From: a virus | Taxonomy: Duplodnaviria > Caudoviricetes | Strand: one strand, 5' to 3' | IMG/VR virus record: IMGVR_UViG_3300029288_000075 | Location: 1-64,000 of that record | DNA length: 64,000 bases | In this document: positions 3,101-61,007 of the stretch, piece after piece | Layout of the letters: the number at the start of each line of letters is the position of its first letter | How positions within the stretch are numbered: position 1 is the first letter of the stretch | Notes under the pieces: generated by a model | Database searches by the model: none | Seen by the model: the letters and a program-made list of their open reading frames with translations, nothing else | Told to the model about the DNA's origin: nothing | Program-made: the position numbers and the translations under genes

Positions 3101-4158
3101 ATCAGATCATCACCTTTGCCAATGACTCTGAGGCCATTCCGTCCGGTAGCGTCACCACCTCTGGTATGGTGGCGCAGATCAACAGCGCGATAGGTAAGGC
3201 CATCGCTAAGATTGGTAGCGGCAATCACCTGGAGTTGGAGGGGGATGTATCGATAGCAGTGCGCGGTACGTCAGTTGGATCTGCAAATACCGTTTTGGGA
3301 TTTCCCACCACCGACAAGGACAACAAGGCGTACCATCAAGGTACGTACATCATCAACAGCGTGGGTCAGCATCAGGTCTTAGCCACACCTCTACTGTCCT
3401 CCACCCCGCCTTTGTCTGTCCATCCTGAGAGTAGGGTGTCTTTCGAAGTGCGCAGGCCTGGGGCACAGCGTGTCAGTTCTACTCGCATGAGTGGTCAGAC
3501 CGCGGAGACTGGCTTGTACTATTGTGATGTGCAGCTAGTAAGTGAAGGCACCGGTGACCTTTACAACATAGGGAATGGCACTCAGCTAATGGTGGACGGC
3601 TATCGTAGCGACGGCTACTACTTGACCACGAGTGATCCACATCTGACGTTCTCTACGGCGGAGAAGTTGACGCTGCATGTGTCTAGGTCAGTGCAGGAGA
3701 TTGGTGTGGCAGATGATCCAGCCAACGCCACGCAATTGACAGGACAGAACCTGGAAATTGCGTATGACAGGGCGGGTCTCGTGGCGGACGTGCAGAACTT
3801 TGCGCTCAGCGAGACGGAGCGTGTGGTTTGCTCGAACCCCCTAGCTAGGCACTTGATCCCGCACTTCGTACGTTTCGATTTCGTGTACACCGGGGGTTCG
3901 GCAGCGGATATAGTGGCGGAGGATATTCGGCAGTACGTGTCGGAGCTGTTCCCGCAAGACTTTCTGGAGGTTGGGGATTTGAACTCTCTGGCCTTTCGGA
4001 GGGGAGCAACCAGCGTTGTGAATCCAATCAACATGCTGGCGGTGGTCTACAACTACGATAGGACTATCTGGTCGCAGAGATCGCAGGATTCTCTGAGTAC
4101 TGGACGTCTGTCGGCATTTGTAGCTGACGTCATCAACATAAATCGAAAGTCAGGCTGA
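166..4158 (+). CDS. Large baseplate J-like (wedge) protein, 1330 aa
   Basis: N-terminal J-type segment (IAEAAGTAYNI...GDDAETSVEYVDRA...LTERSMVT) and C-terminal IRQYVSELFPQD region flank long beta-rich insertions. Confidence 0.7.
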   Translation: MAVFDLQAFIQERLRAFDESIDVTSGAPADVQLIQPLLRRLGVDPFTVDMATFLSDRLRQAFPEMATDEGDALTDLLVKPALLLWDPIVREIYRIRSCQSWRDPTTLTTDEAEALGANLFVDRDRGDFARGVGRIYYAQPRAVSATPVNFFTSKGGLHFYPDGQQDITVQEMMLNTHQGMYYFDVTLIAEAAGTAYNIDSGELSTVANLEGTMKVVNLRRFRSGDDAETSVEYVDRAAQGLTERSMVTIRGIGARIPKAFPEVTRIGVVGCGDPEMQRDVLTGGGLGGVLEAGLLGQTVLDQENRGATRRLRVLDAGVDFLASLDKYSLGSYAVTVAGCFSTSPSVRDLHIKQVVDGQTLDMVEQVFIPSYLNLTWTVRKRELTLSGIPGGILYPDTAFGTVSVPDGEVHVGGMYDVSVRGSSFDTSSLVLENVMDAAPAASGVRGEFASVGTCTLLDLVLGDTYLVDDPVYEALSNAKEYGFILQILTGVNAGNYRVLDVVQATGASPTITLDDSTPVQVGEYRWQLVDEIDIDLVEPKTSRVSGVDMQSVQNSDVLYTAGSTDLAELGVSERDIVRVETGEVAGDYEVKALVAFNAVRVDRAVSATATDLKYTIYRMNSGGGMNLPLVRVTKVELLDGSGQPVGTTIPYAKAIDVQSRSFENPGRGTKVDITDARLGILTIKEPGGGYAVGGQNLTISNVGMAPLVVTFTGGNKTRTQLISELNAAAAALYGIGTIVAKELFDGDAYRVGIIPLSALAVCVSGTAMTGLFASTLARSSLDVRSDSLEAALGWAAVTPAIDQDDLDVLQVLDGNQVGFYGDLSYGPTAAASLLAGDPSGVAEYPAFVPEVGVRVQVGARSIGSARCYFMDPTSVEFKRSSRFRATLSDGVVLNFFPDPTLDYVKLPAYPTVGLVKDGDIAGSGTASFASASQDFVLSSLVVGDHLALRYVPIIGTTVLGTSVAVANMHITLSLEGNADQIITFANDSEAIPSGSVTTSGMVAQINSAIGKAIAKIGSGNHLELEGDVSIAVRGTSVGSANTVLGFPTTDKDNKAYHQGTYIINSVGQHQVLATPLLSSTPPLSVHPESRVSFEVRRPGAQRVSSTRMSGQTAETGLYYCDVQLVSEGTGDLYNIGNGTQLMVDGYRSDGYYLTTSDPHLTFSTAEKLTLHVSRSVQEIGVADDPANATQLTGQNLEIAYDRAGLVADVQNFALSETERVVCSNPLARHLIPHFVRFDFVYTGGSAADIVAEDIRQYVSELFPQDFLEVGDLNSLAFRRGATSVVNPINMLAVVYNYDRTIWSQRSQDSLSTGRLSAFVADVININRKSG

Positions 4159-45644: not shown

Positions 45645-47678
45645 ATGAGTATCCCTGGTTCGTTGATGATGGGTGGCGCCGGCAGCGGTTCTCGTTTTGT
45701 ACAGACCCGTGGGCGCATGGGAAATGGCTACAGCCAGGGGGTCAACTACCCGAGCCCGTTCTTCGACATCGCTCACACGTACTTGCCCATCACCATCAAG
45801 TCGATGCTGCGGTGGTGCCGTTACTACTTTCTGACGAATCCCATCATCAACGCCACAGTCACCAAGTTGGCGGAGTACCCCATTACGGAAATCATGATCG
45901 ACCATCCCGAGAAGCGGGTGGCGGACAAGTGGAAGGAGTACTTCGAAGACCATCTGAACTACCGCGCATTCCAGATTGAGTGTGGCCTTGACTACCATAC
46001 CTACGGGAATTGCCTGTCTAGCTTGAGCTTTCCTTTCAAGAAGTACCTGACGTGTGCTCAATGCGGGTTTCAAGCTGAAGCAAAGCGGATTCGTCCCCAT
46101 TGGGTTTTCACCAATTACGAGTACCGACTGAGTTGTCCCAAGTGCGGCAATCTAGGCACCGCTCGAGCACGTGACGTCTACCTCAAGAGCGAGGATGGTG
46201 TGCAGGTGATGCGGTGGAACCCGGAGGATGTAGAGATTACGTACTCTGCGCTCACGGGGGAGCACACGTACTTCTACAACATACCTGCGTCGGTGCGTAA
46301 CGATGTCATCATAGGTAAGAAGGACGCGGTAGAACAGGTCCCTGAGGTGTTTATTCAGGCGTTGCGCCAGCAGAAGGGTGTTGTATTTTCGAAGGACTTG
46401 TTCTTTCACCTGCGTCGGCCGACGCTGGCTGACCAGGATCGCGGGTGGGGTATTCCTCTGCTTCTTCCCTGTCTGAAAGACACGTTCTACCTGCAGATCA
46501 TGAAGAAGGCGCAAGAGGCCATTCTGCTCGAGCACATTGTTCCTCTGCGCACAATTTCTCCGCAAGCGGGCTCTGGTACCTCTGACCCGTATACCACCAT
46601 CAACCTGGTGGATTGGCGTGATCATGTAGCTACGGAAATTGCGCGTTGGCGCATGGACCCGAACTACATTCCCATCCTGCCGCTGCCCATCTCTAGCCAG
46701 ACCATTGGCGGGGATGGTCGTGCGCTTCTGTTGATCCAGGAGATGCAGGCCATCAGCGAGAACCTCATCAACGGTATGCAGGTTCCGCTCGAGTTCATCA
46801 AAGGTGGCTTGAGCTACGCCGGTACGAATGTGTCGATGCGTATGCTCGAGAACCAGTTCATCATCTACCTGTCGCGGCACAAGCGGCAAGCGCAGTGGGT
46901 GATGCGTAGCGTGGCCGACTACTTAGGGTGGCCGTTGGCTTCCATTCGTTTCAAGCCGTTCAAGATGGCCGACGACATCCAACGTAAGGCCTTCTTGTTC
47001 CAGCTCAACCAAGCCAACAAGGTCAGCGAAACGACATTGCTGGCTGATTCGGATTTGGATCAGGACCGTGAGAATCAGATCATGGAGCGCGAGACGGCGC
47101 AGCGGATCCGTGCAACGGAGAAGCAGCAGCTGGCCACGGCTGAATTGCAGGGCAGGCAGCAAGTTATCATGATGAAGATGCAGGCCAAGGCACAGCAGGA
47201 GATGCAGGCAGCCATGGCTGCCCCCAATGCCCCAGGAGAACCTGGTGGCCCTGCTAGTGGAGCAGCAGCGCCAGGAGGACAGGGCGGCGCTGACGTCATG
47301 CCCAGCAATCCAATGGCGGCTATGCAGAGTCCTCTCAACTCGACCCAGGATATGGGCTTGGGGCATAGCCAACAGCCAGGGCAACAGGCGCAGATGGGTG
47401 GCACTGATATCGTGTTGATGGCGCAGACCTACGCGCAGCAGCTATCTCAGATGAACGCTGCGCAGCAGCTGATCGCCCTCAAGAACTTGCGAACGCAGTC
47501 TCCAGAGTTGGCGGACTTGGTGATGCAGTACTTGCGCAGCATGCCGCGGTCGGTAAACGAGCCTTCTATGCCCGCTGCAAACTCTCAGATGGGGGCGGCC
47601 GGCGCCGCGGCGCAAGAAGTGGATATGACACCGCAGCCAGAGAAGCTTCCGCCAAGACGTGCGGCGGGCATGGTGTGA
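45645..47678 (+). CDS. Probable portal protein with Zn-ribbon insertion
   Basis: NPIINATVTKLAE, FHLRRP...GWGIPLL, coiled-coil and disordered tail; CAQC...CPKC. Confidence 0.6.
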   Translation: MSIPGSLMMGGAGSGSRFVQTRGRMGNGYSQGVNYPSPFFDIAHTYLPITIKSMLRWCRYYFLTNPIINATVTKLAEYPITEIMIDHPEKRVADKWKEYFEDHLNYRAFQIECGLDYHTYGNCLSSLSFPFKKYLTCAQCGFQAEAKRIRPHWVFTNYEYRLSCPKCGNLGTARARDVYLKSEDGVQVMRWNPEDVEITYSALTGEHTYFYNIPASVRNDVIIGKKDAVEQVPEVFIQALRQQKGVVFSKDLFFHLRRPTLADQDRGWGIPLLLPCLKDTFYLQIMKKAQEAILLEHIVPLRTISPQAGSGTSDPYTTINLVDWRDHVATEIARWRMDPNYIPILPLPISSQTIGGDGRALLLIQEMQAISENLINGMQVPLEFIKGGLSYAGTNVSMRMLENQFIIYLSRHKRQAQWVMRSVADYLGWPLASIRFKPFKMADDIQRKAFLFQLNQANKVSETTLLADSDLDQDRENQIMERETAQRIRATEKQQLATAELQGRQQVIMMKMQAKAQQEMQAAMAAPNAPGEPGGPASGAAAPGGQGGADVMPSNPMAAMQSPLNSTQDMGLGHSQQPGQQAQMGGTDIVLMAQTYAQQLSQMNAAQQLIALKNLRTQSPELADLVMQYLRSMPRSVNEPSMPAANSQMGAAGAAAQEVDMTPQPEKLPPRRAAGMV

Positions 47679-48024: not shown

Positions 48025-48063
48025 TCCTCTACCTTTCTTATCCCTGGTTTTTGGCTATTATTT
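48025..48063 (-). promoter_or_regulatory. Phage-specific promoter motif B
   Basis: AAA-N16-GGGATAAGAAAGGTAGAGGA. Confidence 0.7.
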
Positions 48064-49401
48064 CAGGAAGATGGTCTGTCCCCACGCCGCGGGCTTTGTG
48101 CGTGACGTAGGCACGATGCACCAGATCACCTCCATGTTGGTAGGCGGTTCTTCAGGTACCGTACCGTCACCGTCTGTGATGTAGATGAGCATGTCTGGTC
48201 GAGGCATGGCCTTGCATGCTTGTGCTATTGGCTGCCTGAAGTCCGTACCTCCACGCCCGTGTATTTCCATCTGGTACAAGTCCGCTGAGCACACCAGTGT
48301 TGGTTCCCGTTGTATTTTGGTGTCTGCCTCGAGGTAGTACACCTGCGAAGTGCCAGTTTGGTCGATGACGTCGGCGCAAACGCGCAGTGCGGCGCCCAGC
48401 TCAGGCTTGCCCATGGACAAGGAACTGTCCACTACTAGCCAGAGGCAGGGGTCGTAGTCAACCAGTCCAGGTAGCATGAACCCGCGGAGGTAAGACCGCT
48501 TTGACGGACGTTTGCGGCTGTAGTCAGAGCCGCCTACCCGAATGTGGTCTATGGTTTGGCTGGTGACTTCAGCCAGCAGCGATTCCCAAGGAACGTTGAA
48601 GGTTTCGTCGCTGGCGATGATGAGCTCGGACCAGATACCGGGGGCATTATCCCTACCGGTAGCTTGCAGGTGGTCTTTGATAGCCTGCGAGGTGAGTCTT
48701 ACGATGTGTCTCTTGTAGGCGTCAGAGCGACCTCCGTTCTTCTCTGCATTTTTGGCTGCTTCGAGCGCCTCAGATGTCGAAGCGCTAGATACGCCACCGC
48801 AGCAGCCAGCCATGAATTTGTTGTGGTGTTTTCCAGACTGGCCTTCTTGGTCGTTGCCGTCACCTGCTTCGCCTGAATCTCCGGCAGTACTTTTCTGCTT
48901 CTGTTCCTTCTCGTGCTGTTTCAGCCTGCGGTAGTACTCGTCCGCGGTAAGTCCGTTTGGCCATGCGTACTGCGCAGGAAGTACTGCCCAGTCAGGAAAT
49001 AGCCAAAGAGGTCGTTCTTCCGTGTTGGGGCCGCTGCTGTTCTTGAGTCGTACGGTGCGCTTTTGCTCCACCATCACACCGTTGATGAACAGGTCGCACG
49101 CCAAGAAAAAGGTCTGCGTATCTGGATAGCGCAGCCCTCTCTTCACATGCTCGAGCTGCACATGAAGGCACTCGTGAGCCAATCCGGTGGCCACAATTTG
49201 GGGATCTTCTGTAGCCACCCAGGCAGGGTCGTAGAGAAGCACAAGTTGCTCAGTTACGGCCATAGGGCCCTTGGCTATTTGCATCATGTGCTCGACTGGC
49301 GTTGGTATCAACGCGTAGAGTGTCGGGCTTAGGTATGGTGCAAACTGTCGGACAATCGCCCGCGCCAAGGGCAGCGCGGGCGACATATCTTGGTACGTCA
49401 T
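48058..49401 (-). CDS. Metallopeptidase-VWA protein (DUF2201-like)
   Basis: AHECLH, MIDAS VVDSSLS, GRGGTDF, YITDG. Confidence 0.85.
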   Translation of the reverse strand: MTYQDMSPALPLARAIVRQFAPYLSPTLYALIPTPVEHMMQIAKGPMAVTEQLVLLYDPAWVATEDPQIVATGLAHECLHVQLEHVKRGLRYPDTQTFFLACDLFINGVMVEQKRTVRLKNSSGPNTEERPLWLFPDWAVLPAQYAWPNGLTADEYYRRLKQHEKEQKQKSTAGDSGEAGDGNDQEGQSGKHHNKFMAGCCGGVSSASTSEALEAAKNAEKNGGRSDAYKRHIVRLTSQAIKDHLQATGRDNAPGIWSELIIASDETFNVPWESLLAEVTSQTIDHIRVGGSDYSRKRPSKRSYLRGFMLPGLVDYDPCLWLVVDSSLSMGKPELGAALRVCADVIDQTGTSQVYYLEADTKIQREPTLVCSADLYQMEIHGRGGTDFRQPIAQACKAMPRPDMLIYITDGDGTVPEEPPTNMEVIWCIVPTSRTKPAAWGQTIFLK

Positions 49402-50672
49402 AGTTGCTCTTCCAAGAACTTGTTCAAGCCACCCTTAGCTAGCGGCACTATCACTTTCTGTGCTGCCTGCGCGACTGCCTTGTCCTGGCACTTCATGCCT
49501 AGACGCTGCGTGATCATGCTTTCAGCGTATGGCACTACGATGTCCGCCAAGTTTGCAGTTTGTAGTCGGCCGAGAGCTGCCCACATCAAGGGGGCCAGTT
49601 CTACTTTTTCCTCCATGGTGCTGCGTTGTCGCAGATACGAGGCAGCGCTGGCGTAGGCCATCACAACGATGTCCAGGCGATCCTTGTCAGGCTGCCATGT
49701 GCCGTCTAGCACGGCCATTGGCTCTGGCATGTCTGCTGTTTGAAGAAAGGTGGATAGCGTGGCTGCAGGTCCTTGCCCTACGCAGCATTCCACCAGCGTG
49801 TCACGCACCAGCTCAGATTTGCCAAGAATGGAGCAGGTGGTCCAGAGCCTGCCGGCGAAGTCCCACGTTCTAGAGGAAGGCCAGGCCTTGCTGCTTCTTG
49901 GGTCTGTTGCGGCAGGTTCCTGGTTGAACAGGGTGGGGTTGGATTTCAAGAAGGCGGTGATGAGGGAGAACGAGATGGGTTCTGCGTTTTTCCAGTTCTC
50001 CGTGACCATGGCTTCCAGGTTTAGTAGTGAGTGCGAGGAAGTAGCTGACGCGCCAAACATTTTGTAGGAAGTCCACTGCTCCAGCGGAAGGGACGGGTAT
50101 TCGTAGTGTGCAAAGCGCTGAGCCAATGGGGCAGACAGCCGGATGCCATTCGTGGCGATGTGCACTGGATTCTGGGCGGCAACGATGCGTACCTCGTTGG
50201 GTAACCTGGTATCCCCAGAAGCACGTTCGTGAACGAACGCTTGAAGTGCGGTATGCGTGGCCCTGGTACCACCGTTTATCTCGTCCAAGAAGATGATGCC
50301 CCGACCGTGTTCCACCATCTCACGGACCTGCGGTAGTGGACAGATCTGTTTGGCTCCGCCTCTGCCATCCGGGATGAGCACGCTGGCAAAGTCCTCCGGG
50401 GCGTGCTGTGACGCGTATAGGGTGACCAGCCTTTCTTGCATTGCGTCTGATAGCTGTTCAATCTGCGCAGTTTTCGCACTGGCAATCTTGCCCTCGATGA
50501 GTAGTGGGATCCCCCAAATGCACTTGGTGTCTCCTGGGGATCCCTTCATCGGTGTAGCAAAGCAGACCTCGAGCAGGTCTAGCAGCAGCGGTCTTGGACC
50601 AGCTACCGATGGCTGTGCGGTGGTGCGGAGGGCTGATAGGTTTGCTACAGTTTGCTTTCTCTTCATGGCCAT
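49398..50672 (-). CDS. MoxR-like AAA+ ATPase
   Basis: Walker A GKIASAKT, IFLDEIN, AAQNP, LAQRF, PSSRTW. Confidence 0.85.
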   Translation of the reverse strand: MAMKRKQTVANLSALRTTAQPSVAGPRPLLLDLLEVCFATPMKGSPGDTKCIWGIPLLIEGKIASAKTAQIEQLSDAMQERLVTLYASQHAPEDFASVLIPDGRGGAKQICPLPQVREMVEHGRGIIFLDEINGGTRATHTALQAFVHERASGDTRLPNEVRIVAAQNPVHIATNGIRLSAPLAQRFAHYEYPSLPLEQWTSYKMFGASATSSHSLLNLEAMVTENWKNAEPISFSLITAFLKSNPTLFNQEPAATDPRSSKAWPSSRTWDFAGRLWTTCSILGKSELVRDTLVECCVGQGPAATLSTFLQTADMPEPMAVLDGTWQPDKDRLDIVVMAYASAASYLRQRSTMEEKVELAPLMWAALGRLQTANLADIVVPYAESMITQRLGMKCQDKAVAQAAQKVIVPLAKGGLNKFLEEQL

Positions 50673-51253
50673 TACTTGCATTCTCCAGTGCGATGTACGC
50701 AGGTTGAGTGGTCGCAGGTTCTAGTTCTCCAGCACCGTTCGAATAGTCCGTCCAGACATACGGAGAGTCCAGGCACTGGTTCCACCCCTGTTTTCCAAAT
50801 GGGGGTGTCTCGGCTTTCTTCCAAGTGATTTAGGCAGCCTATGCACACGTGTATTTCGTTGTTCATGCCCACGAACTTGGGCATGTACTCGCGGTGCGGG
50901 TTGCGTTCGGAGTAGTGAAGTTCGCCAAAGGCAGCAGTAGCGAAGGCTTCTCCCTGAAGTATGTCGCTGCCGCAGATGTCACATTCCACTATCCCATCGG
51001 CATCCTCGAGCGGCGGTGAGTCTTCTAGTAGCTCCTTCACTTCTTCAAGGGTCTCTTCCCAGCAGCTGAAGCACCAGAACACCGGTATGTAGCGGAAGTA
51101 CCCGTTCATCTCTAGGACGTCCACCATCTGTAGTCCCGCGTCGGTGTTGACTACGTGCACGATGTGAAATAGAAAGACTTCGTCGGTGAGACCTAGCTCA
51201 TCGCCGCAAGAGGTGCAGTAGATACCAGATCCAACTTCTACCTCTTCCTCCAT
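50672..51253 (-). CDS. Tandem Zn-finger protein
   Basis: Two CxxC...CxxC repeats plus a C-terminal Cys cluster. Confidence 0.7.
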   Translation of the reverse strand: MEEEVEVGSGIYCTSCGDELGLTDEVFLFHIVHVVNTDAGLQMVDVLEMNGYFRYIPVFWCFSCWEETLEEVKELLEDSPPLEDADGIVECDICGSDILQGEAFATAAFGELHYSERNPHREYMPKFVGMNNEIHVCIGCLNHLEESRDTPIWKTGVEPVPGLSVCLDGLFERCWRTRTCDHSTCVHRTGECK

Positions 51254-51852: not shown

Positions 51853-51941
51853 GGGTTCCTCCAGATGAGCGAGTCCATCAAGTAGTGGGAGAAGCCGAAG
51901 ATGAACCCTGCGATGAATGCCCAGATGAGGAGCGATTTCAT
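51849..51941 (-). CDS. 30-aa membrane peptide (not in ORF track)
   Basis: MKSLLIWAFIAGFIFGFSHYLMDSLIWRNP, coupled at both ends. Confidence 0.45.
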   Translation of the reverse strand: MKSLLIWAFIAGFIFGFSHYLMDSLIWRNP

Positions 51942-51942
51942 A

Positions 51943-52092
51943 TTAGGATTCTTTTTCCGGCTCTTCTGTTGTACTTTCAGTTGATGATGACCTGCTGTAC
52001 AGGTCTTGTACCAACTGGCGGTACTTCTCTCCGGAGTCAGGGCGATCAGGAAACTCTTGTGCTGTTGGGCGTTTTTGTTCTTTGCGTGGCAT
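51943..52092 (-). CDS. 49-aa hypothetical protein (not in ORF track)
   Basis: GGAGG RBS directly after motif C; MPRKEQKRP... Confidence 0.45.
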   Translation of the reverse strand: MPRKEQKRPTAQEFPDRPDSGEKYRQLVQDLYSRSSSTESTTEEPEKES

Positions 52093-52110
52093 GCGACCCT
52101 CCGATAAAGC

Positions 52111-52138
52111 TCTTATCCCGTAGGGTGCGTGTCCCTTG
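52111..52138 (-). promoter_or_regulatory. Phage-specific promoter motif C
   Basis: CAA-N16-GGGATAAGA at the head of the MoxR/VWA operon. Confidence 0.6.
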
Positions 52139-52187
52139 CACCTTTTTGTCCCCGCAACCGCTGGTTCCAGCTATACTCTCGTAGAGC

Positions 52188-55100
52188 ATGACGCACTTGA
52201 ATCCGACTGAAGCGTTCGAGCACTACCGCGACAAGACCCTGGGTGCGATCAGGAAGCAGTTCCCTGTCGACGGGCAGAACCAACGTCTCGAGCTGGTGGA
52301 CCTAGAAGTTCAGGACAACTTGAATCCCGACGATATCAGGGATCAGCAGCAGGCCAAGGTAACAGGGAAGACTTGGGGTATCCCGGTTTACGCCAAGCTC
52401 AAGTTGGTGAACAAGGTCACTGGCGAGACGACTCAGTCGCGTACCAGAATTGCTGAGCTTCCCAAGATTACATGCCGACAGAGCTACATCGTAGGCGGGC
52501 AGGAGTACCAAGTAGACAACCAGTGGCGGCTCAAGCCTGGCGCGTATGTGCGGAGGAGGCAGACCGGACAGATTGAGGCAATGTTCCAGCCGGGTAACAA
52601 GCCGTCGTTCGACGTTGTTTTTGATGACGCGACGAAGGAGTTCAAAGTAGAGCTCCCTGGCGGTAAAGCGTCTGTGCCGCTGTACCAGATCATTTCCACG
52701 TTGGGTGTTTCTGATGACGAGTTGCACAAGGCGTGGGGTCCTGAGGTATTGGCTGCCAACAGAAATGCACGTGGTGTTCACGGGGCGGTGGAGCAGTACT
52801 ACAAGACCACGACAAAGAAGGAGGCACCCAGTGCGGCAGTAGCTGTAAGTCATCTAGTGACTTCACTGCAGCAAACGCAGCTGCGACCCGAAGCTACGGC
52901 GCTCACGCTTGGGAAGCCGATAGACCATGTGAACGGTGATGCTCTGCTGCGGGCTACTCGCAGGATGTTGGATGTCCAGTCTGGTGGGCCTGTAGATGAC
53001 CGCGATTCGCTGGTGTTCAAGGACCTCAGGAGCGTTGGGGATTTCTCCGAGGACAAACTACGTGAGGCTGGTGCAGATATTCGACGTAAGATGTCGAGGC
53101 AGGTGAATCGCGCAACCAACCCGTCCCACATGGTGCCGCTTGACGCGTTCAATAGGCCCATCAGGGACACGTTCTACAAGAACTCTGCAGCGCAGGTAGC
53201 CAAGCAAATCAACCCGGTGGAGATCTTGTCGGCTGCGCAGCAGACCACGGTGATGGGACCTGGCGGTATCCAGTCCGAGAATCAGATCATGCCCGAGGTG
53301 AAGTTTGTGAATCCCTCGCACATGGGCTTCTTGGACCCGATACATACGCCGGAAGGTGGAAAGACGGGCGTTACCTTGCGGTTGCCTATGAGCGTGAAGC
53401 AAGTTGGGTACGAGCCTAGGATTCCGCTGTACAACATACGTACAGGAAAGGTGGAAGACGTAGGGCCTGCCGCGTTTCTGAAATCGAAGATTGTACTTCC
53501 TGACCAGGTGGACTGGAAAGGCGGGAAGCCGGTAGCTCGAGGGCGTACGGTGAAGCTATCCGTGGCAGGCAACGACGTATCGGATGGCCATTTGCACGAG
53601 GCTGACTACGTGATGCAGCACACGTCGCAGTTCTTCAATGTCACCAGCAACTTGATCCCGTTCATCAACAGCACTTCTGGTGGCAGAGCATCTATGGCCA
53701 CCAGGCACATGGAGCAGGCCATCTCTCTGGTGGGACGAGAAGCACCTCTTGTTCAAGTAGGCACTGGCTCCGCTACCCCGGGTAGCACCACTTTCGAAGA
53801 GGTTGTAGGCACTCGCGCGTCTCATTACTCTCCGATCGCGGGCGTGGTGAAGGCAGTGAAGCATGACGCTGTGGTAGTAGCTGGCCACGACGGCAAGGAG
53901 CACGAGGTGCAGATCTACCGCAACTACCCGCTGAACGACGCCAAGTCGGTTTTGGACTCCACAGCGATTGTGAAGCCTGGTGATCGCGTGCGTGCGGGGC
54001 AGGTGGTGGCGGATACGAACTTTTCAAAAAACGGCGTAATTGCCTTGGGCACGAACCTGCGCGTGGGCTACATCCCGTACACGGGGTACAACTTCGAGGA
54101 TGGAGTAGTCATCAGCGAAAGTGCTGCGACGAAGCTCAGTAGCGACCATCTATACAAGCACAAGGTTCCCGTAGATGCCGAGTCGGTGTTGTCGAAGAAG
54201 CACTTTGTGACGCACCACGCTGGCTTGTTCAGCAAGGATCAGTTCGCAAAGGTAGGAGATGACGGGCTAGTTGCCGTAGGATCCGTGGTGCATCCCGGAG
54301 ACCCGCTGGTCTTGTCTATGAAGCAAGTGGTTGCGCGTGACCGCACGGGGCTATCCGCCATCCGTAAGAGCTTTGGGACTCAGTTTGCCGACCAGTCTAC
54401 TGTCTGGGACGGGGTAGGTGAAGGCAGGGTTGTGAGCTCCGAGAAAGTTGGCGACCACGTGGTTGTACACGTGCGGGCAATTGAGCCGATGCAAGTTGGC
54501 GACAAGTTGGCTGGTAGGTACGGCAACAAAGGCATTGTCACCAAGATTGTGCCGGACCACGAGATGCCACGTACACCCGATGGGAAGCACATAGAGGTGG
54601 CGTTGAATCCCTCGGGGGTACCTGGGCGTATGAACGTAGGGCAAGTGCTGGAGACTGCGGCTGCCAAGATTGCCCAGAAGACGGGCAAGCCGTACATTGT
54701 GCAGAACTTTTCAGATGGTAGTCAGCTTGCTCGGGTGCAAGCCGACCTGAAGAAGCACGGGCTGAGTGACACAGAGGACTTGTTTGATCCTATTACGAAG
54801 CAGCGCTTGGGCACTGCGCTGGTCGGCTCCCAGCACATGATCAAGCTGCACCATCAAGTGGACAAGAAGGTGTCCGTACGCTCTGGCATGACGTTGCCGG
54901 GAGAAGCTCCAGAGAAGTACAACTCCAACCTGCAGCCGGTGAGTGGCAAGCATACCGGCGGACAAGCGATGGACCCGCTAGGTATGTACTCTCTGCTCGC
55001 GCACGGGGCTCGTGCAAACATCCGAGAGATGGCCACGTGGAAGAACGAAGGTCCGGACATGTCTTCCAATCCGTCCAAGCAGTGGCATAGTCAGCATCAC

Positions 55101-58100
55101 GAGGTGTGGGATGCCATACAGCACGGTGACCCGTTGCCCGTGCCGAAGCCGACTTTCGCCTTTCACAAGTTCACGTCGATGCTTACCGCCGCGGGCATCA
55201 ACGTAGATAAGAAAGGGCACAACTTCATCTTGGGCCCGTTGACGGATTCCCACATACAGCAGTCGTCTGGAGATCGGGTACTGACGAAGCCTTCGGAGAT
55301 TGTTTACGCGAAGCTGGATTCGAAGACGGGGGAGCCCAAGCCCAAGCCGGGAGGGTTGTTTGACGACCGCCTTACTGGTGGCAATGGCGGACGTAAATGG
55401 AGTCGAATCGCCCTTGCCGAGCCGGTGCCAAATCCCGTGTTTGAGGATTCCATCCGGATGCTGACGGGGCTCTCTTCTGCGGACTACCACGGGTTGGTGC
55501 ATGGGGTGCACGCGATAGACAGTCACGGCCACATCGTAGAGGCTGGCAAGGGCACTACTGGCGGTGCGGCGATTGAGCAGCTGCTGAAGAAGATAGATGT
55601 GGCTGCCGAGTTGGATAAGTCCAAGAGGGCTTTGAATACGCTACCGGCGTCGAAGGTGGATGCCACCCTGAAGAGGGTGAAGCGGCTACAAGCACTTCAC
55701 CAGTCTGGCTTGTCTGCTGATGAGGCATACGTGCTGCACTCCCTGCCAGTCATTCCTCCAGCTATGCGCCCAGTCACTGTCATGCACGACGGCTCGCTGA
55801 AGTTCGATGACATCAATCAGCTGTATGCCAAGGCAGCTCAGACGAACATGTACTTGGGGGATCAAACGTTGGCCACGAACTTGCCGGAACAGCGCAGGAG
55901 AGATTTGCGCAAGGAGATGTACGACGGTGTCAGTGCATTGATGGGAGTCGGTATCCCGTACAAGGATGCGCAGCATAAGGGCCTATTGCATCTGATCCAG
56001 GGCGCGCAGCCCAAGACCGGCTATTTCCAGAGCACGCTCATCAGTCGCAAGCAAGACCTGAGCATGCGGTCTACCATTGTTCCGGAACCCTCCTTGGGGT
56101 TGGACGAGGTAGGGTTGCCTCGAGAGCAAGCCATGAAGCTGTTTTCTCCCTTTGTGGTGGGTGAGTTGAAGAAGTCAGGAATGGCCATCAACGTGGCCGA
56201 CGCGCAGAAGATGGTAGCTTCCGGCACGCCCGCGGCGCACAGGGCGTTGGCCAAAGTCATGACCGAACGTCCCGTGATGCTGAAACGAGATCCTTCGTTG
56301 CACAAGTACAGCATCCAGGCGTTTCAGCCTAAGGTGGTGGAGGGTAGCGCTATCAAGATTCACCCGCTGGTTACTGGGGGGTACAACGCAGACTTCGACG
56401 GGGACACCATGAGCGTGTTCGTGCCTATCTCTCAAGAGGCAGTGGATGAGGCGCACCGCATGTTCCCGTCCAACAACCTGTTCAGCGAAGCTACAGGCAA
56501 GGTCATGTACCAGCCTACGCTGGAGTCTGCGCTGGGGCTGTATAAGCTGTCGCGTGTCAATGATACGAAGGCGCACCACATCTCTCACCCTGCGGAAGCG
56601 ATTACCGCGGTGCAGCAGGGGAAGCTAACGGTGAATGACCGGGTGAAACTGGGAAATCAGGTCACCACACCAGGTCGTATCATTTTGGCGGCCGCCCTGC
56701 CTGAGCCAATGCAGCGTCCTATGCTGGAGAACCTTGGGCAGCAGTTGGACAAGAAAGGGCTGGACGCGCTGCTGACTACAGTGGCCAAGAACCATGTCGG
56801 AGACTATGGGCATGTAGCAGACAAGCTGAAGAACTTGGGTAACGGGGCGGCAAGTGGCGTGGTCACGGTGGAGCATGACGGATTCGTGGGTGCTGCACGT
56901 CTGGACCAGAAGAATAGAACTTACGTGCCTGTGGGCGTCCACACGCTGGCGTTGTCCGACTTTGAGCCAGATACGAAGACCAGGGAGCGAGTGTTGGCAC
57001 CGGCTCGTTTGGAGGCGGCACAGGTAAGGCAGGGGGGTGGTACCAAGTACAACAAGGATGCTGCGCTGGTGCGTATTTGGTCTGCAGCAGACCGCAAGAT
57101 GCAGGAAGAGCACATGAAGGTGGCCACAGACGATCCGACCAACCTCATGATGATGCACTTGGCTGGCGTGAAGCCCGGGTGGGGACAGTACAAGCAGCTC
57201 ACGCTGGCACCCATGCTGGTGGCCGACGCTTCTGGAAGAATCATCCCAGTGCCTATTACCCGCAGCTACTCCGAGGGGCTGGATTCTGGAGATTACTGGA
57301 ACCAGATGCACGGAGCTCGGCGTGGTGCGGTCATGAAGGTGCAGGAGGTCCAGGAACCTGGGTATCTTTCGAAGCTGATGATGGCCAACACTATGAACAT
57401 GGTGGTGCATGGGAACGACTGTGGCACTGAGCGCGGTATTGCTCTTCCTGTGACCGACCCAGATGTGCATGACCGGTTCTTGCAGCGTGAATTCAACGAG
57501 AAGGGAGTGCATGTCCCCTCCGGTACCTTACTCACTCCGCGGGTAGTCACCAGCATGCGTTCAGCAAACAAGAATGCTCAGATCGTGGTGCGCAGCTCGT
57601 TGAAGTGCGAGCATGCTACTGGGGTGTGCCAGAAGTGTATGGGGCTAGCGGCCAATGGCAACTTGCATTCTGATGGGGACAATGTTGGTGTTACGGCTGC
57701 ACAGACGCTGGGTGAGCGCGCGGTGCAGTTGACCATGCGCGTTTTTCATACCGGTGGCGTGGCGGATACCGGGAGTGGTTCCCGCGTGCTGGGGGAATTC
57801 GATCGGGTGCAGCAGCTCATGAAGTTGCCCAAGCGCATACCCGACGCGGCCACGTTGGCTATGGCATCGGGCACAGTTGACAAGGTGGAAAAGACGGCCA
57901 CCGGCATGAACATCTTCGTTGGGGGTAAGAAGCACTTCGTGGGGAAAGACGCTCGAGGGGCACCCTTGTGGCATTCCATAGGGGACAATGCGCATCCTGG
58001 CTGGGTCCCCCCGCGGGTAGGGACCCAGGTGACGCGAGGCCAGTCGCTGAGTGATCCTCTTCGTACGCTGGTGAATCCGCATGATCTGTACAAGGCCACT

Positions 58101-58583
58101 GGGAGCATTGAGACTGTGCAGAACCACCTGGCGGACCAACTGCATTCCTTGTACAAAAGCGAAGGGATCAAGCGGCAGCACGTGGAGACTGTGGTCAAGG
58201 CCATGAGCAACCTGTCCGAGGTAGCCGCCCCTGGGGACTACGAGGGTGTCCTGCGTGGCGAATTCCATCCCACGTCCAAGCTCATTGCGGTCAACAAGCG
58301 GCTGATTCGGGAGGGTAAGAAGCCGATAGAGCACAAGCCGGTACTGAAGGGGGTGGACATCATGCCGTTAGCGGTTCAAGAAGATTGGATGGCCAAGATG
58401 CAGCACATCAAGCTCAATCAGACCCTGCTGGATGCAGCGGCCACAGGCGGTAGATCCAGCATCCATGGCATGCACCCCATTCCTGCTCTGGCGTATGGTG
58501 CTGAGTTTGGTTTGACAAGTGAGCATGCCAAGCAGCGGTCAGCCTTGAGCCATCTTCACGATGTGCAGGGGCACGAGTACTGA
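52188..58583 (+). CDS. Single-chain beta-beta' DNA-dependent RNA polymerase, 2131 aa
   Basis: beta motifs TPEG, GYNFEDG, GDKLAGRYGNKG, NPSGVPGRMNVGQ followed in frame by beta' motifs LPVIPPAMRP, YNADFDGD, HGARRG, TMRVFHTGG. Confidence 0.95.
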   Translation: MTHLNPTEAFEHYRDKTLGAIRKQFPVDGQNQRLELVDLEVQDNLNPDDIRDQQQAKVTGKTWGIPVYAKLKLVNKVTGETTQSRTRIAELPKITCRQSYIVGGQEYQVDNQWRLKPGAYVRRRQTGQIEAMFQPGNKPSFDVVFDDATKEFKVELPGGKASVPLYQIISTLGVSDDELHKAWGPEVLAANRNARGVHGAVEQYYKTTTKKEAPSAAVAVSHLVTSLQQTQLRPEATALTLGKPIDHVNGDALLRATRRMLDVQSGGPVDDRDSLVFKDLRSVGDFSEDKLREAGADIRRKMSRQVNRATNPSHMVPLDAFNRPIRDTFYKNSAAQVAKQINPVEILSAAQQTTVMGPGGIQSENQIMPEVKFVNPSHMGFLDPIHTPEGGKTGVTLRLPMSVKQVGYEPRIPLYNIRTGKVEDVGPAAFLKSKIVLPDQVDWKGGKPVARGRTVKLSVAGNDVSDGHLHEADYVMQHTSQFFNVTSNLIPFINSTSGGRASMATRHMEQAISLVGREAPLVQVGTGSATPGSTTFEEVVGTRASHYSPIAGVVKAVKHDAVVVAGHDGKEHEVQIYRNYPLNDAKSVLDSTAIVKPGDRVRAGQVVADTNFSKNGVIALGTNLRVGYIPYTGYNFEDGVVISESAATKLSSDHLYKHKVPVDAESVLSKKHFVTHHAGLFSKDQFAKVGDDGLVAVGSVVHPGDPLVLSMKQVVARDRTGLSAIRKSFGTQFADQSTVWDGVGEGRVVSSEKVGDHVVVHVRAIEPMQVGDKLAGRYGNKGIVTKIVPDHEMPRTPDGKHIEVALNPSGVPGRMNVGQVLETAAAKIAQKTGKPYIVQNFSDGSQLARVQADLKKHGLSDTEDLFDPITKQRLGTALVGSQHMIKLHHQVDKKVSVRSGMTLPGEAPEKYNSNLQPVSGKHTGGQAMDPLGMYSLLAHGARANIREMATWKNEGPDMSSNPSKQWHSQHHEVWDAIQHGDPLPVPKPTFAFHKFTSMLTAAGINVDKKGHNFILGPLTDSHIQQSSGDRVLTKPSEIVYAKLDSKTGEPKPKPGGLFDDRLTGGNGGRKWSRIALAEPVPNPVFEDSIRMLTGLSSADYHGLVHGVHAIDSHGHIVEAGKGTTGGAAIEQLLKKIDVAAELDKSKRALNTLPASKVDATLKRVKRLQALHQSGLSADEAYVLHSLPVIPPAMRPVTVMHDGSLKFDDINQLYAKAAQTNMYLGDQTLATNLPEQRRRDLRKEMYDGVSALMGVGIPYKDAQHKGLLHLIQGAQPKTGYFQSTLISRKQDLSMRSTIVPEPSLGLDEVGLPREQAMKLFSPFVVGELKKSGMAINVADAQKMVASGTPAAHRALAKVMTERPVMLKRDPSLHKYSIQAFQPKVVEGSAIKIHPLVTGGYNADFDGDTMSVFVPISQEAVDEAHRMFPSNNLFSEATGKVMYQPTLESALGLYKLSRVNDTKAHHISHPAEAITAVQQGKLTVNDRVKLGNQVTTPGRIILAAALPEPMQRPMLENLGQQLDKKGLDALLTTVAKNHVGDYGHVADKLKNLGNGAASGVVTVEHDGFVGAARLDQKNRTYVPVGVHTLALSDFEPDTKTRERVLAPARLEAAQVRQGGGTKYNKDAALVRIWSAADRKMQEEHMKVATDDPTNLMMMHLAGVKPGWGQYKQLTLAPMLVADASGRIIPVPITRSYSEGLDSGDYWNQMHGARRGAVMKVQEVQEPGYLSKLMMANTMNMVVHGNDCGTERGIALPVTDPDVHDRFLQREFNEKGVHVPSGTLLTPRVVTSMRSANKNAQIVVRSSLKCEHATGVCQKCMGLAANGNLHSDGDNVGVTAAQTLGERAVQLTMRVFHTGGVADTGSGSRVLGEFDRVQQLMKLPKRIPDAATLAMASGTVDKVEKTATGMNIFVGGKKHFVGKDARGAPLWHSIGDNAHPGWVPPRVGTQVTRGQSLSDPLRTLVNPHDLYKATGSIETVQNHLADQLHSLYKSEGIKRQHVETVVKAMSNLSEVAAPGDYEGVLRGEFHPTSKLIAVNKRLIREGKKPIEHKPVLKGVDIMPLAVQEDWMAKMQHIKLNQTLLDAAATGGRSSIHGMHPIPALAYGAEFGLTSEHAKQRSALSHLHDVQGHEY

Positions 58584-59848
58584 TGGCGGGTCACCACCAG
58601 GGACTAGCCGAGGCGGCGCGCGGGGCAATACGGCCTCGTACGGAATTCCGTACAAGCATGACTGCGCCGTCAGGGTTGGGTGACACCAACATACTCATGG
58701 CGCGCGTCATCAACGTGGACCTAGTGCACTACACCGTTGACGTATACAGTCAGTTCGATCAAGTGCGCCTGCTGTCGGTGCCCATCGGGTCTCCATATCT
58801 GCACTCGAATCGTGGAGATGGACTCTCTATCACCCCAGAGATTGGTGCCAAGTGTGCCGTCTGCTGGCCTGGGGATAGTTCTCCTCCATTCGTTCTGGCC
58901 TTTGTTATGCCGCACGAGACGGTACCGACGACAGGTGATGCGGAGAGCCCTGGAGGAACGTCCGAGCGCAGCGACAGTAATCAGGGTCCTTCTACAGCCA
59001 GTTTTGCTGGAGGTAGACCAAAGGGTAAGCCGGGGGACATAGCTCTGCGGGGTCGGGATGGGCAGTTCGTTGTACTGCACCGCGGCGGCGTGCTCCAGGT
59101 TGGAAGCAACGAGCTAGCGCAACGCTTGTATATCCCGCTGAACAACCTGGTGATGGACGTGGCCGAGAACTATGCCATGCAGAATTCCGGCGGGTCAATA
59201 CGCTGGGGAATACAAGAGGGAGAAGGTGAGACCACCCTTCCTACTGAGTACAAGCACGCCATGCGCGTGTACGCGAACGACAAGTATGCAGATCTTCGCA
59301 TAGGCATGGGGCGCGTACATGATCCAGTGCCCGAGATGGATGACGACGGGATTACGGACTTGGCAGCCGCTGAAGTAGGAAAGACAGAGCCCATCGTGTG
59401 CGAGCTCTCCCTTGCTAGGAACGGGTTCAAAGCAGAGAGCGGTGCGCTACTACCTGGTACGGGCAACCTGGTGAAGCTTCGATTCATCTTTGACCGTGCT
59501 GGCAACGCGTTTCTGCGTATGGATGGAAACGTTGGTATCTTGTGCAAGAAGAAGTTGCGTCTTCGTGTGAAGGGCGACATGGAGGTGTTCGCCGACAGCA
59601 ACTTCAGCCTGACTGTAGCTAGCAGTGCAAAGATAGCCGTGGGTGGGAACTTCGAGCTCACGGCACCCGTGGTGCGCGTAAACGATGGAGACAAGCCTGT
59701 AGCACGTGTAGGGGACCAGGTGTCCGTAACGTTACCGCCTACGTTGCTCATGGTAGCTCCGGGCCCGCCGGGGTTCATGCCAATACCGCCGGGCATGAAC
59801 TCAACGATTGGTGTCATCACCAGTGGTAGATCGGACTTCTTGGCGTAA
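58583..59848 (+). CDS. Baseplate central spike (gp5/GpV-like) with PAAR-like tip
   Basis: OB-fold (TPEIGAKCAV), beta-strand repeats, KPVARVGD. Confidence 0.7.
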   Translation: MAGHHQGLAEAARGAIRPRTEFRTSMTAPSGLGDTNILMARVINVDLVHYTVDVYSQFDQVRLLSVPIGSPYLHSNRGDGLSITPEIGAKCAVCWPGDSSPPFVLAFVMPHETVPTTGDAESPGGTSERSDSNQGPSTASFAGGRPKGKPGDIALRGRDGQFVVLHRGGVLQVGSNELAQRLYIPLNNLVMDVAENYAMQNSGGSIRWGIQEGEGETTLPTEYKHAMRVYANDKYADLRIGMGRVHDPVPEMDDDGITDLAAAEVGKTEPIVCELSLARNGFKAESGALLPGTGNLVKLRFIFDRAGNAFLRMDGNVGILCKKKLRLRVKGDMEVFADSNFSLTVASSAKIAVGGNFELTAPVVRVNDGDKPVARVGDQVSVTLPPTLLMVAPGPPGFMPIPPGMNSTIGVITSGRSDFLA

Positions 59849-60489
59849 TGGTAAACGACATCGGCAGCTATACGCTTGGTGGCATCAACATTGGATTGGC
59901 CGTAGGCATAGGCCTGATCAACCCACTGCTACTGCAGTTCGACTTGTTCCTGACAGGACAGTTCGGTCTTGGGCCATTTCTGCTGGATGTGCAGGTAGCT
60001 TTCAATGCAGCGATATCCGCGGTGTTGCAGCTCAGCATCGGGATCTCTGACCCGTTGGCGATACTGCGGTCGTTGCTCATGGCTATGGTGCAATTGCAAG
60101 CTTCGTTGTCGGTGATGCTGTCTTTCGGATTGCCCACGGTTACTGCGCAGATAGGCGCACAGATTGCTGCTGTGGCAGCACTCACTGGTGCCTTGGCTTT
60201 GAAGCTAGGTGGTGTGCGAGCCTTGCTGTCTGCCGGGTTGGCCGTGAAGATCCCGGTAGTGAAGTTTGTCGGACAGATCACTGGTGCACTAAGCGCTGGG
60301 CCTGCCCATTTGCTGTCCTTTACGGGAAGTACATTGGCCGCATCTGGCGTTCAGATTGCGGCAGCCTTCGCTTCTGGTCTTGGACCAGACGACCCTCTTT
60401 TGCCAACCGACTTGGTGGATGGCATCATCATCGTCACTAAGGACCCTGCCGTTTTCCAGGCTATGGGTTTGCTGCTAAAGACATCGTGA
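59848..60489 (+). CDS. Highly hydrophobic putative tail-tip protein
   Basis: TAATG-coupled to the spike; L/A/G/I-rich. Confidence 0.55.
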   Translation: MVNDIGSYTLGGINIGLAVGIGLINPLLLQFDLFLTGQFGLGPFLLDVQVAFNAAISAVLQLSIGISDPLAILRSLLMAMVQLQASLSVMLSFGLPTVTAQIGAQIAAVAALTGALALKLGGVRALLSAGLAVKIPVVKFVGQITGALSAGPAHLLSFTGSTLAASGVQIAAAFASGLGPDDPLLPTDLVDGIIIVTKDPAVFQAMGLLLKTS

Positions 60490-61007
60490 TGGCTAGCCAC
60501 TCGCAAAGATTTTGGGCTAAGGTGCAGAAGCGAGGTCCCAAGCATCCGGGGTTAGGCACACGCTGTTGGGTGTGGACCGCGGCAAGGCTTCCTGCGGGCT
60601 ATGGGTTGTTCAAGCTGAATGGCCGCAGCCGTGTTGCTCATAGTGTTGCTTGGGAGATCGAACACGGCGAACTACTTAGAGGTATCTGCGTGCTACATCG
60701 CTGCGATAATCCAGCGTGCGTGCGCCCAGACCACCTGTTTTTAGGTACCAGAGGGGACAACAATACGGATAGGTCCATAAAAGGCAGAAGTGCCAAGGGA
60801 GACCGCTCGCCCTCCAGGTTGCACCCGGAGAGCAGACCAAGAGGCTCCCGGCATGCCAATGCGAAACTGACGGAAGAGAGGGCCGCCAGGATTCGGGAGT
60901 TATATGCTGTTGGAGATACTACGCAGACCAGGCTGGCCCGGCTGTTCGGTGTTCATCAAAAGGTGATTAGTGGTATCGTTTTGGGCACTAGTTGGAAGAC
61001 CTCGTAG
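60489..61007 (+). mobile_element. Free-standing HNH homing endonuclease
   Basis: CWVWT, GYG, VLHRCDNPACVRPDHL...NNTD, C-terminal HTH. Confidence 0.85.

Follow-up and report, generated by a model that had tools for sequence, protein, structure and literature searches.

A single-chain beta-beta' RNA polymerase encoded by a tailed phage, with a candidate phage sigma partner and a possible place in the virion

The tailed-phage genome recorded in IMG/VR as IMGVR_UViG_3300029288_000075 (Duplodnaviria; Caudoviricetes; 187,857 bp, estimated 99% complete) encodes a complete bacterial-type beta module joined to a complete beta' module in one open reading frame (ORF). The gene lies in bases 1-64000 of the record, the stretch analyzed here and referred to as the window. 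Judged from its sequence, the product is a genuine, functional-looking, single-polypeptide core RNA polymerase (RNAP) of bacterial type. The preferred reading, to which a probability of roughly 0.6 is given, is that this single-chain core forms a holoenzyme with a phage sigma factor, without host alpha or omega, and that the enzyme is made late, packaged in the virion and injected.

The ORF runs uninterrupted on the plus strand, with 0 internal stops in its translation. Pfam places Rpb2_3 and Rpb2_6 at residues 336-899, followed by Rpb1_1, Rpb1_2 and Rpb1_5 at residues 1137-2016. PF00562 (Rpb2_6, the beta barrel) matches with an E-value of 1e-53 and PF04565 (Rpb2_3, the fork) with 1e-9, Rpb1_2 and Rpb1_5 score above their cut-offs, and NCBIfam rpoB and rpoC models match across the full length of the protein. 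A phmmer comparison of the beta' module with beta' chains of the PDB gives an E-value of 8e-107. An earlier sequence-only reading of the window had described a single ORF with beta and beta' motifs in order, which the ORF, the Pfam order and the motif alignment bear out; the catalytic NADFDGD lies exactly where that reading had placed it, and its description of a one-chain enzyme of cellular type is backed by sequence, predicted fold and conserved catalytic residues. The overlap it saw with the downstream gene is equally real, as the final A of the TGA stop (nucleotide 58583) is the first base of the next ATG, and relatives show the same 1-nt overlap. The gene and its parts are as follows.

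52188..58583, plus strand: fused beta-beta' RNAP gene, 2131 amino acids (translation; Pfam and NCBIfam domains of beta then beta'; fused relatives).
52188..55217, plus strand: beta module, residues 1-1010, with protrusion/lobe, fork, double-psi beta-barrel, flap and C-terminal clamp part (AlphaFold2, alignment).
55218..58580, plus strand: beta' module, residues 1011-2131, beginning at about E. coli beta' residue 18 (AlphaFold2, phmmer, alignment).
55389..55394, plus strand: site of the missing beta' zinc-binding domain (E. coli 68-99, four Cys), residues 1068/1069 (alignment gap).
56385..56405, plus strand: catalytic NADFDGD, residues 1400-1406 (family alignment).
57285..57395, plus strand: bridge helix, residues 1700-1736, aligned to E. 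coli beta' 769-805 with the HGARRG core retained.
57420..57638, plus strand: C-terminal zinc site C1745, C1807, C1814 and C1817, with 4/4 Cys invariant in the family alignment.
57669..57839, plus strand: trigger loop, residues 1828-1884, without an insert of the E. coli SI3 type (alignment).

The anatomy of the protein was read from an alignment to beta and beta' of Salmonella (in E. coli numbering) and Staphylococcus. The two modules are joined head to tail, at the point where the ends of the two subunits meet in cellular enzymes. The junction, at about residue 1010, is direct and has no added linker, and its residues G1003, G1010 and P1017 are invariant across the family of fused relatives described below. 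The fused RNAP is ~600 amino acids shorter than the E. coli pair because lineage-specific inserts and the N-terminal zinc-binding domain of beta' are absent; missing relative to E. coli are beta SI1 (220-354), beta SI2 (938-1049), beta 1125-1178, beta' SI3 (944-1128) and both outer tails. The zinc-binding domain is lost in a 32-residue gap that includes all four Cys when compared with Salmonella and Staphylococcus, a loss common to the whole fused family and to two cultured phages with related enzymes, Salmonella phage Arash and Vibrio phage D69.

The residues on which catalysis depends are retained. N1400, D1402, D1404, G1405 and D1406 of the active site are invariant in all 10 of 10 diverse family members, as are G771, D772, K773, K781 and G782 of the beta GDK...GNKG motif in the family alignment, and the catalytic motifs, bridge helix, trigger loop and C-terminal four-Cys site are invariant or nearly so among members down to 35% identity. 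AlphaFold2 models were built for each module from 46-sequence alignments. The beta model (residues 1-1010; pLDDT 85, pTM 0.80) matches whole bacterial beta chains in Foldseek with TM scores of 0.76-0.78, the beta' model (residues 1011-2131; pLDDT 86, pTM 0.80) matches bacterial beta' with scores of up to 0.82, and all top matches of both modules are bacterial. In rifampicin cluster I the fused RNAP has A, Q and T in place of H526, R529 and S531, from which insensitivity to rifampicin is predicted by analogy with known resistance substitutions.

The fused gene belongs to a family that is very large, with more than 150 clusters at 50% identity, genomes of ~190 kb and many environments represented. 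A word-indexed search returned 119 other clusters (90% identity level) that are 54-75% identical to the fused RNAP and lie on contigs of up to 200 kb. Their proteins are mostly 2119-2163 amino acids long, with about a dozen longer ones (2422-2984 amino acids) that carry intein-type domains. In an exhaustive HMMER search with the junction-spanning residues 600-1750 as the query, the best 150 clusters at 50% identity are nearly all single chains that extend across the junction, most of them 2000-2160 amino acids long; about twenty shorter entries of 1100-1900 amino acids look like fragments. A megablast of window positions 40000-64000 against a phage collection gave 0 matches to near-identical phages.

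These relatives bear on the suspicion that the gene is an artefact, either a cellular rpoBC captured by or mis-binned into a viral contig, or a pair of genes that an error of assembly or a frameshift has merged. Independent ENA, JGI and Logan assemblies show this gene again, with its portal and terminase neighbourhood, and since fusion and neighbourhood recur across the family in this way, an assembly or frameshift artefact is excluded, including the stop or frameshift near 55200-55300 that the sequence-only reading had named as a weak point. For a captured cellular gene it could be said that the best NCBIfam models are the fused rpoBC of Helicobacter (PRK09603) and Wolbachia (PRK14844), and that several relatives were placed in metagenome-assembled genome (MAG) bins labelled as bacteria or archaea. 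Those two models, however, match with 534 and 450 bits where the cut-offs are 5372 and 4632, the protein is 27-32% identical to bacterial enzymes, and the contigs in the MAG bins are 90-176 kb long and phage-like. An artefact of either kind is accordingly regarded as extremely improbable.

The phylogenetic position points the same way. From 35 sequences, concatenated or fused, a maximum-likelihood tree was built (LG+G4, 2028 columns) with a single archaeal outgroup from a MAG; its limits are narrow bacterial sampling, the one outgroup, a site-homogeneous model and long branches, and the original sequences of the mReC group of metagenomic phages, discussed below, are not among the 35. Fifteen Bacteria, labelled as four phyla, form one group with support of 100, and all phage enzymes form the other with support of 99. 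On the phage side, Cobetia phage Carin-5 and Yersinia phage YerA41 branch first, and Arash with D69 (100) is sister to a monophyletic fused family (95). On this tree the fused RNAP lies outside the sampled Bacteria and is not nested in any sampled cellular clade; nesting within cellular rpoBC was the outcome that the sequence-only reading had named as counting against its claim. Phage RNAPs of multisubunit type are already known as a kind. A description of a fused cellular-type phage RNAP was not found in full-text literature searches, including PMC7824862 and PMC13282480, where coverage was partial and the result is absence of evidence only; with that qualification, the single-chain beta-beta' family is a real addition that we did not find described.

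Some contigs of the family that were binned into bacterial or archaeal MAGs (L010-L018) are probably mis-binned. Host assignment from the MAG labels, which include Myxococcota/Myxococcales, Anaerolineales, Desulfatibacillum, Thermoplasmatales and Chitinophagales, was rejected as too scattered, and the labels are a weak hint at best.

Mobile elements provide a further indication of function. Inserts of about 340-530 amino acids, one to five per protein, are present in 89 of the 272 family proteins retrieved, and one of the relatives reaches 4739 amino acids. In the numbering of the window protein, which is itself free of such inserts, the hot spots are ~388 (the TPEG fork motif), ~616, ~775 (GDK), ~810, ~958, ~1280, ~1406-1412 and ~1854-1862 (the trigger loop). 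The commonest site, with ~50 proteins, is NADFDGD (~1406-1412). Three inserts were checked, and all have LAGLIDADG and/or intein-splicing domains. Inteins typically home into catalytic motifs of essential, highly conserved proteins, and the inserts at catalytic motifs therefore argue that the enzymes of this family are functional.

The partners of the fused core were sought in the whole genome. The sequence-only reading had reported no alpha, omega or sigma gene in the window and pictured an enzyme that works without sigma. None of the three lies in the window, and alpha (PF01193) and omega (PF01192) are absent from the whole genome as well, in searches that matched 14 of 14 control genomes. 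The picture of an enzyme without sigma has to be corrected, as one candidate sigma70-family gene lies outside the window and such a factor co-occurs with the fused RNAP.

Genome 125585-126340, outside the window: sigma-like ORF, 251 amino acids (Pfam, NCBIfam, homology to Arash Gp10).

This ORF scores 30.8 bits for Sigma70_r3 against a Pfam cut-off of 25.3, with weak matches below cut-off for regions 2 and 4. The nearest NCBIfam models are SigB/F/G and FliA/WhiG, with E-values of 1e-7 to 1e-8 and scores far under the cut-offs, and the ORF is 30% identical (E 1e-19) to Gp10 of Arash, a 'sigma factor'. A profile of the family of this sigma found no second copy in the genome. Approximately 104 relatives lie on contigs that match in size those with fused RNAP (193017, 193847, 200070, 198155 and 193418 bp). 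From these comparisons the factor appears group-3-like and co-occurs with the fused RNAP in related genomes and, with its homologous enzyme, in Arash. The whole-genome search also returned one beta/beta' locus only and no second RNAP of this type; a T7-type RNAP (PF00940) gave no match in the whole genome, yet 0 control genomes matched either, which makes that search uninformative.

On these sequence comparisons a sigma-dependent mechanism is the most likely one for the fused RNAP. The alternative is that the fused RNAP works without sigma, by intrinsic recognition or another factor, and that the phage sigma solely redirects the host RNAP. It has precedents in the phage RNAPs of the phiKZ/AR9 type, which use factors outside the sigma70 family (PMC13282480, PMC7598289), and in the many large phages that lack an RNAP and encode sigmas for the host enzyme. 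The missing zinc-binding domain of beta' is compatible with it, and so are the T and L that the clamp helices carry where E. coli has R275 and E295, residues important in the docking of sigma70. Against it, genomes throughout the family, and Arash too, have both sigma and the RNAP, both the alignment and the AlphaFold2 models show the clamp helices and the flap, and the sigma gene of Carin-5 directly precedes its RNAP genes. The altered docking residues would fit a co-evolved, dedicated sigma at least as well. Recognition without sigma is considered quite unlikely.

In bacterial RNAP the alpha dimer brings beta and beta' together and omega aids the folding of beta'; the known assembly pathway runs from alpha2 to alpha2-beta to alpha2-beta-beta'. 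Seen against this pathway, the fusion itself could stand in for the scaffolding by alpha, and the fused RNAP with its 251-amino-acid sigma would make a two-protein holoenzyme in which the core binds sigma and is independent of host alpha and omega. The fused enzyme might nevertheless use host alpha or omega.

The promoters that such a holoenzyme may read are suggested by a recurrent motif. GGNATAAG has 26 copies in the genome, mostly 10-35 nt before a ribosome-binding site (RBS) and ATG; in many cases an A-rich triplet lies ~15 nt upstream of the motif. The six copies in the window are not above the count expected by chance, and it is their positions that inform. All of them are on the minus strand, which bears the replication module headed by GGNATAAG, comprising PolA, DnaG, DnaB, an SNF2 helicase and UDG. 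The consensus of the sigma28/FliA class is TAAA-N15-GCCGATAA, which the motif resembles, and this fits a group-3-like sigma. The holoenzyme would accordingly read phage-specific promoters of the putative form AAA-N15-GGNATAAG that head the replication genes. The motif copies and the elements of the intergenic region upstream of the RNAP gene are these.

25357, 35809, 39842, 48037, 52112 and 63335, all minus strand: window copies of GGNATAAG (motif search).
52112..52119, minus strand: GGGATAAG, a promoter-like motif heading the divergent minus-strand unit, conserved in relatives and one of the 26 genome copies.
52166..52177, plus strand: conserved element TCCRGCTATACT, 10-16 nt before the RNAP start, a candidate promoter or regulatory site (intergenic alignment).

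The RNAP gene itself has a different upstream region. TCCRGCTATACT is the only conserved plus-strand block in an intergenic alignment with two relatives, and CCRGCTATA occurs once in the genome. The hexamer TATACT has six copies in the 188 kb, counting both strands, against ~49 expected from base composition; one of these is the element before the RNAP gene. There it was considered as a host sigma70 promoter, but it stands 10 nt before the ATG without a convincing sigma70 -35 or extended -10 (TG) and was not listed by the scan. A second promoter class probably exists, since the plus-strand virion units are without GGNATAAG.

The intergenic region also holds small ORFs. On the minus strand at 51853-52093 they have a GGAGG RBS, an ATG at 52093 and GGGATAAG at 52112-52119, and in relatives gene callers place minus-strand genes of 48-73 amino acids upstream of the RNAP. 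A plus-strand ORF of 99 amino acids with a GTG start (51885-52184) was considered as the counterpart of the small pre-RNAP gene of Arash and D69. It was rejected as probably not a gene because of these minus-strand small ORFs with RBS and promoter motif and because the gene calls of relatives are on the minus strand.

The timing of expression and the destination of the enzyme are suggested by the genes around it, of which two anchor the argument.

45645..47678, plus strand: portal gene, upstream anchor (29-32% identical in tblastn to gp204, the portal of Arash, and to its D69 homologue).
58583..59848, plus strand: 421-amino-acid gene, candidate baseplate hub or spike (language-model look-alikes with Gp5_OB or Phage_base_V, a lead only).

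The plus strand carries virion genes: positions 166-4158 encode a baseplate wedge protein, and the portal gene and the terminase gene (genome positions 65041-66987) also lie on this strand. The RNAP gene is the first gene past the divergent intergenic region. The 421-amino-acid gene has no Pfam or PHROG match. Because the RNAP gene lies in the block of virion genes and is translationally coupled to the spike-like gene, late expression and packaging are probable. The RNAP would be packed into the particle, be delivered with the DNA and start transcription in the next host, a logic modelled on phiKZ and N4; in the present genome the replication genes have a phage-specific promoter and the sole phage RNAP gene stands among late virion genes. 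Mass spectrometry (MS) of Arash virions provides a parallel, with the most spectra for Gp206 (3516), 1210 for Gp216, the second piece of its RNAP, and 467 for the sigma Gp10 (PMC10585845). Gene position, translational coupling and the MS of a relative with 30% identity together suggest an enzyme that is late-expressed and virion-packaged and would transcribe early genes, as the sequence-only reading had proposed. For packaging of the fused RNAP in itself, the odds are put at slightly better than even.

Several observations weigh against this reading. The Arash homologues are only ~30% identical to the fused RNAP, and of the 272 Arash proteins 116 turned up in the preparation, ribonucleotide reductases and further enzymes among them, with carry-over raised by the authors as an alternative (PMC10585845). 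What precedes the RNAP gene is a unique element and not GGNATAAG, so the gene could be timed differently from the virion genes. The searches gave a single sigma for what seem to be two or more promoter classes, and the phage sigma could redirect the host RNAP instead. A head protease of the T4 type (PF03420) was not found in the genome by Pfam, a weak negative with few controls matched, and the N-terminus of the RNAP has no conserved cleavable leader. A capsid-targeting leader had been considered for the N-terminal NPTEAF..., which resembles the starts of the sigma and of one 196-amino-acid ORF; only two ORFs of the genome begin with the pattern, no Lys-x-Ala site is conserved in relatives, and in the alignment the segment corresponds to a conserved helical region at the N-terminus of bacterial beta, so that the leader was not counted.

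Some of these points can be taken to favour a non-virion RNAP, likened to T7 RNAP or the non-virion enzyme of phiKZ, that would be made in the cell from its own promoter, possibly by host RNAP, and would drive middle and late transcription with the phage sigma without being packaged. The conserved upstream element is unlike both the GGNATAAG class and the neighbouring genes, the enzyme is the sole RNAP of the genome and must act inside the cell anyway, and the abundance of non-structural enzymes in the Arash sample and the N-terminus without a leader agree with it. This account has to contend with the place of the gene in the plus-strand virion block, with a stop overlapping a spike-like gene in an arrangement conserved in relatives, and with the top spectral counts of the Arash homologues. 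The TATACT hexamer lacks the company of a convincing sigma70 -35 or extended -10, and the promoter of the replication genes is phage-specific and not of sigma70 type, so that an enzyme able to read it is needed when infection begins. A non-virion enzyme is considered unlikely on balance, and a late-made, packaged RNAP with a phage sigma is retained as the preferred reading.

The order of genes is conserved. In three related contigs the portal is followed by a VWA-metallopeptidase and MoxR ATPase (minus strand), two genes of 204 amino acids (minus strand), a small ORF (minus strand) and the RNAP (plus strand), after which come genes of ~420, 214 and ~700 amino acids and then the terminase. In the window, a DUF2201 metallopeptidase and VWA protein lie at 48058-50681 on the minus strand, adjoining a MoxR-like AAA+ ATPase; such a metallopeptidase/VWA-MoxR chaperone pair is found in some jumbo phages, with a proposed role in virion assembly (Iyer et al. 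2021, PMC7824862). An HNH endonuclease ORF at 60486-61007 on the plus strand (PHROG E 4e-28) stands between genes of 213 and 709 amino acids and looks like a mobile insertion, as this place is without a gene in L097 and L098, two related contigs.

A self-sufficient two-protein holoenzyme, in which a single-chain core and a sigma need neither alpha nor omega and are packed in the capsid and injected, is put forward tentatively. If true, it would be the first virion RNAP to depend on a sigma70-family factor, and also the smallest complete transcription machine of bacterial type. A one-chain beta-beta' in a genome without alpha or omega genes is a natural test of the purpose of those subunits, and it bears on the extent to which the bacterial core can be trimmed, being without lineage inserts and without the zinc ribbon. 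The private sigma and the simple promoter could become a two-gene orthogonal transcription system, and the abundance of inteins and introns makes the family useful for studies of the homing of selfish elements into active sites. The cultured relatives, Arash on Salmonella and D69 on Vibrio, make the questions of packaging and sigma testable at the bench.

Among cultured phages, the closest enzymes, at ~30% identity, are those of the Vibrio phages D69, D181 and D148 (genomes of 187 kb) and of Salmonella phage Arash (181 kb). The enzymes of Arash (Gp206 and Gp216) and D69 resemble the fused RNAP over their full length, form its sister group on the tree and share the fusion at the beta-beta' junction, the loss of the beta' zinc-binding domain and the neighbourhood of portal, small ORF and RNAP, together with a homologous sigma (Arash Gp10). 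Their pieces total 2131 amino acids in Arash and 2136 in D69, compared with 2131 here. In contrast to the single gene of the window, they are encoded by two genes, one of ~1525 amino acids (beta and the N-terminal part of beta' with the active site) and one of ~609 amino acids (the C-terminal part of beta'), and the active site reads AADYDGD in place of NADFDGD. The cut aligns to residue ~1490 here, or E. coli beta' ~552. The pieces are 4.7 kb apart in Arash, with mostly opposite-strand genes between them, and 640 bp apart in D69. An intron at this cut was rejected in favour of a true gene split, as an Rfam search for introns found none in the D69 gap or the Arash locus, nor any in the RNAP locus of the window. 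The only intron found is in D181 (OZ196140.1, L100:1991-2902), of group I (RF00028, 100.7 bits, E 9e-26) and with an ORF for a homing endonuclease behind it; it interrupts the beta part between codons aligning to residues 495 and 499, an interruption and not a gene split. Records of the Arash/D69 type annotate the RNAP pieces merely as 'beta subunit' or 'hypothetical protein', and the D181 record lists its two RNAP exons as separate hypothetical proteins.

The sequence-only reading had suggested that the enzyme may belong to a deep-branching RNAP lineage of metagenomic tailed phages. The position outside the sampled Bacteria agrees with this, whereas membership of the published group as listed does not hold. 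Weinheimer and Aylward (2020) described 97 metagenomic Caudovirales contigs (mReC) with deep-branching beta and beta', capsid family PF07068 (Gp23) and terminase PF03237 (Terminase_6N) (PMC7481178). As in mReC, the phage beta and beta' are still recognized by cellular profiles and branch outside Bacteria. In the phage rows compared from the table of that paper, beta (~900-1520 amino acids) and beta' (~900-1390 amino acids) are separate ORFs, in contrast to the one ORF here, and the term 'fused' is applied there to crAssphage alone (PMC7481178). PF07068 gave no match in this genome, in a search whose sensitivity is unproven (one weak control match), and the terminase of close relatives is GpA_ATPase (PF05876), not PF03237. 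On these sequence criteria we do not file the phage under mReC as defined; the fused family and the mReC enzymes may share a deeper origin.

Carin-5 and YerA41, cultured phages that resemble mReC, fall on the same side of the split between Bacteria and phages (99) as the fused family. They differ in having beta' before beta and in the location of these genes among replication genes. In Carin-5 a sigma gene (L089:2541-3131) immediately precedes those for beta' and beta, an independent linkage of a phage sigma with a multisubunit RNAP.

The fused RpoBC proteins of Helicobacter and Wolbachia are, like the phage protein, one chain with beta before beta', and their NCBIfam models are the best-scoring ones. 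They are about 2840-2890 amino acids long as opposed to 2131 here, and cellular RpoBC enzymes have kept their zinc-binding domain and function together with alpha2 and omega. As the tree does not nest the phage protein within the sampled Bacteria, the phage fusion is an independent one. Other phage-labelled records hold ordinary cellular genes. OR844998.1 ('Staphylococcus phage SA 1306 Kay', UNVERIFIED_ORG; L092) and similar unannotated records carry an ordinary rpoB-rpoC pair (1183 + 1213 amino acids) that groups with Bacteria, and such records are likely host contamination. The best PHROG matches of the two halves of the fused RNAP, phrog_24349 and phrog_25354 ('unknown function'), were rejected as phage relatives, as their profile lengths are those of Firmicutes RpoB and RpoC; they are probably derived from such host-like sequences.

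The RNAPs of phiKZ and AR9 lack alpha and omega, and one set is packaged and transcribes early genes (PMC13282480, PMC7598289). They resemble the fused RNAP as phage enzymes of multisubunit type without these subunits and are a functional analogy for the packaging hypothesis. They consist of 4-5 polypeptides, with two sets per genome and factors outside the sigma70 family (gp68, gp226), whereas one chain, one set and a candidate sigma70-family factor are found here, and they are far more divergent, with PHROG matches at E 1e-29 or weaker. Finally, crAss-like gp66, YonO and the tape-measure-fused RNAP of P23-45 are single-chain phage RNAPs with a DxDxD barrel, and the crAss-like and P23-45 enzymes are delivered by the virion. 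These are minimal two-barrel enzymes, related to the RNAi type or to beta' only, and they do not have all the domains of beta and beta'; the fused RNAP described here, by contrast, can be aligned with the bacterial subunits beta and beta' from one end to the other.

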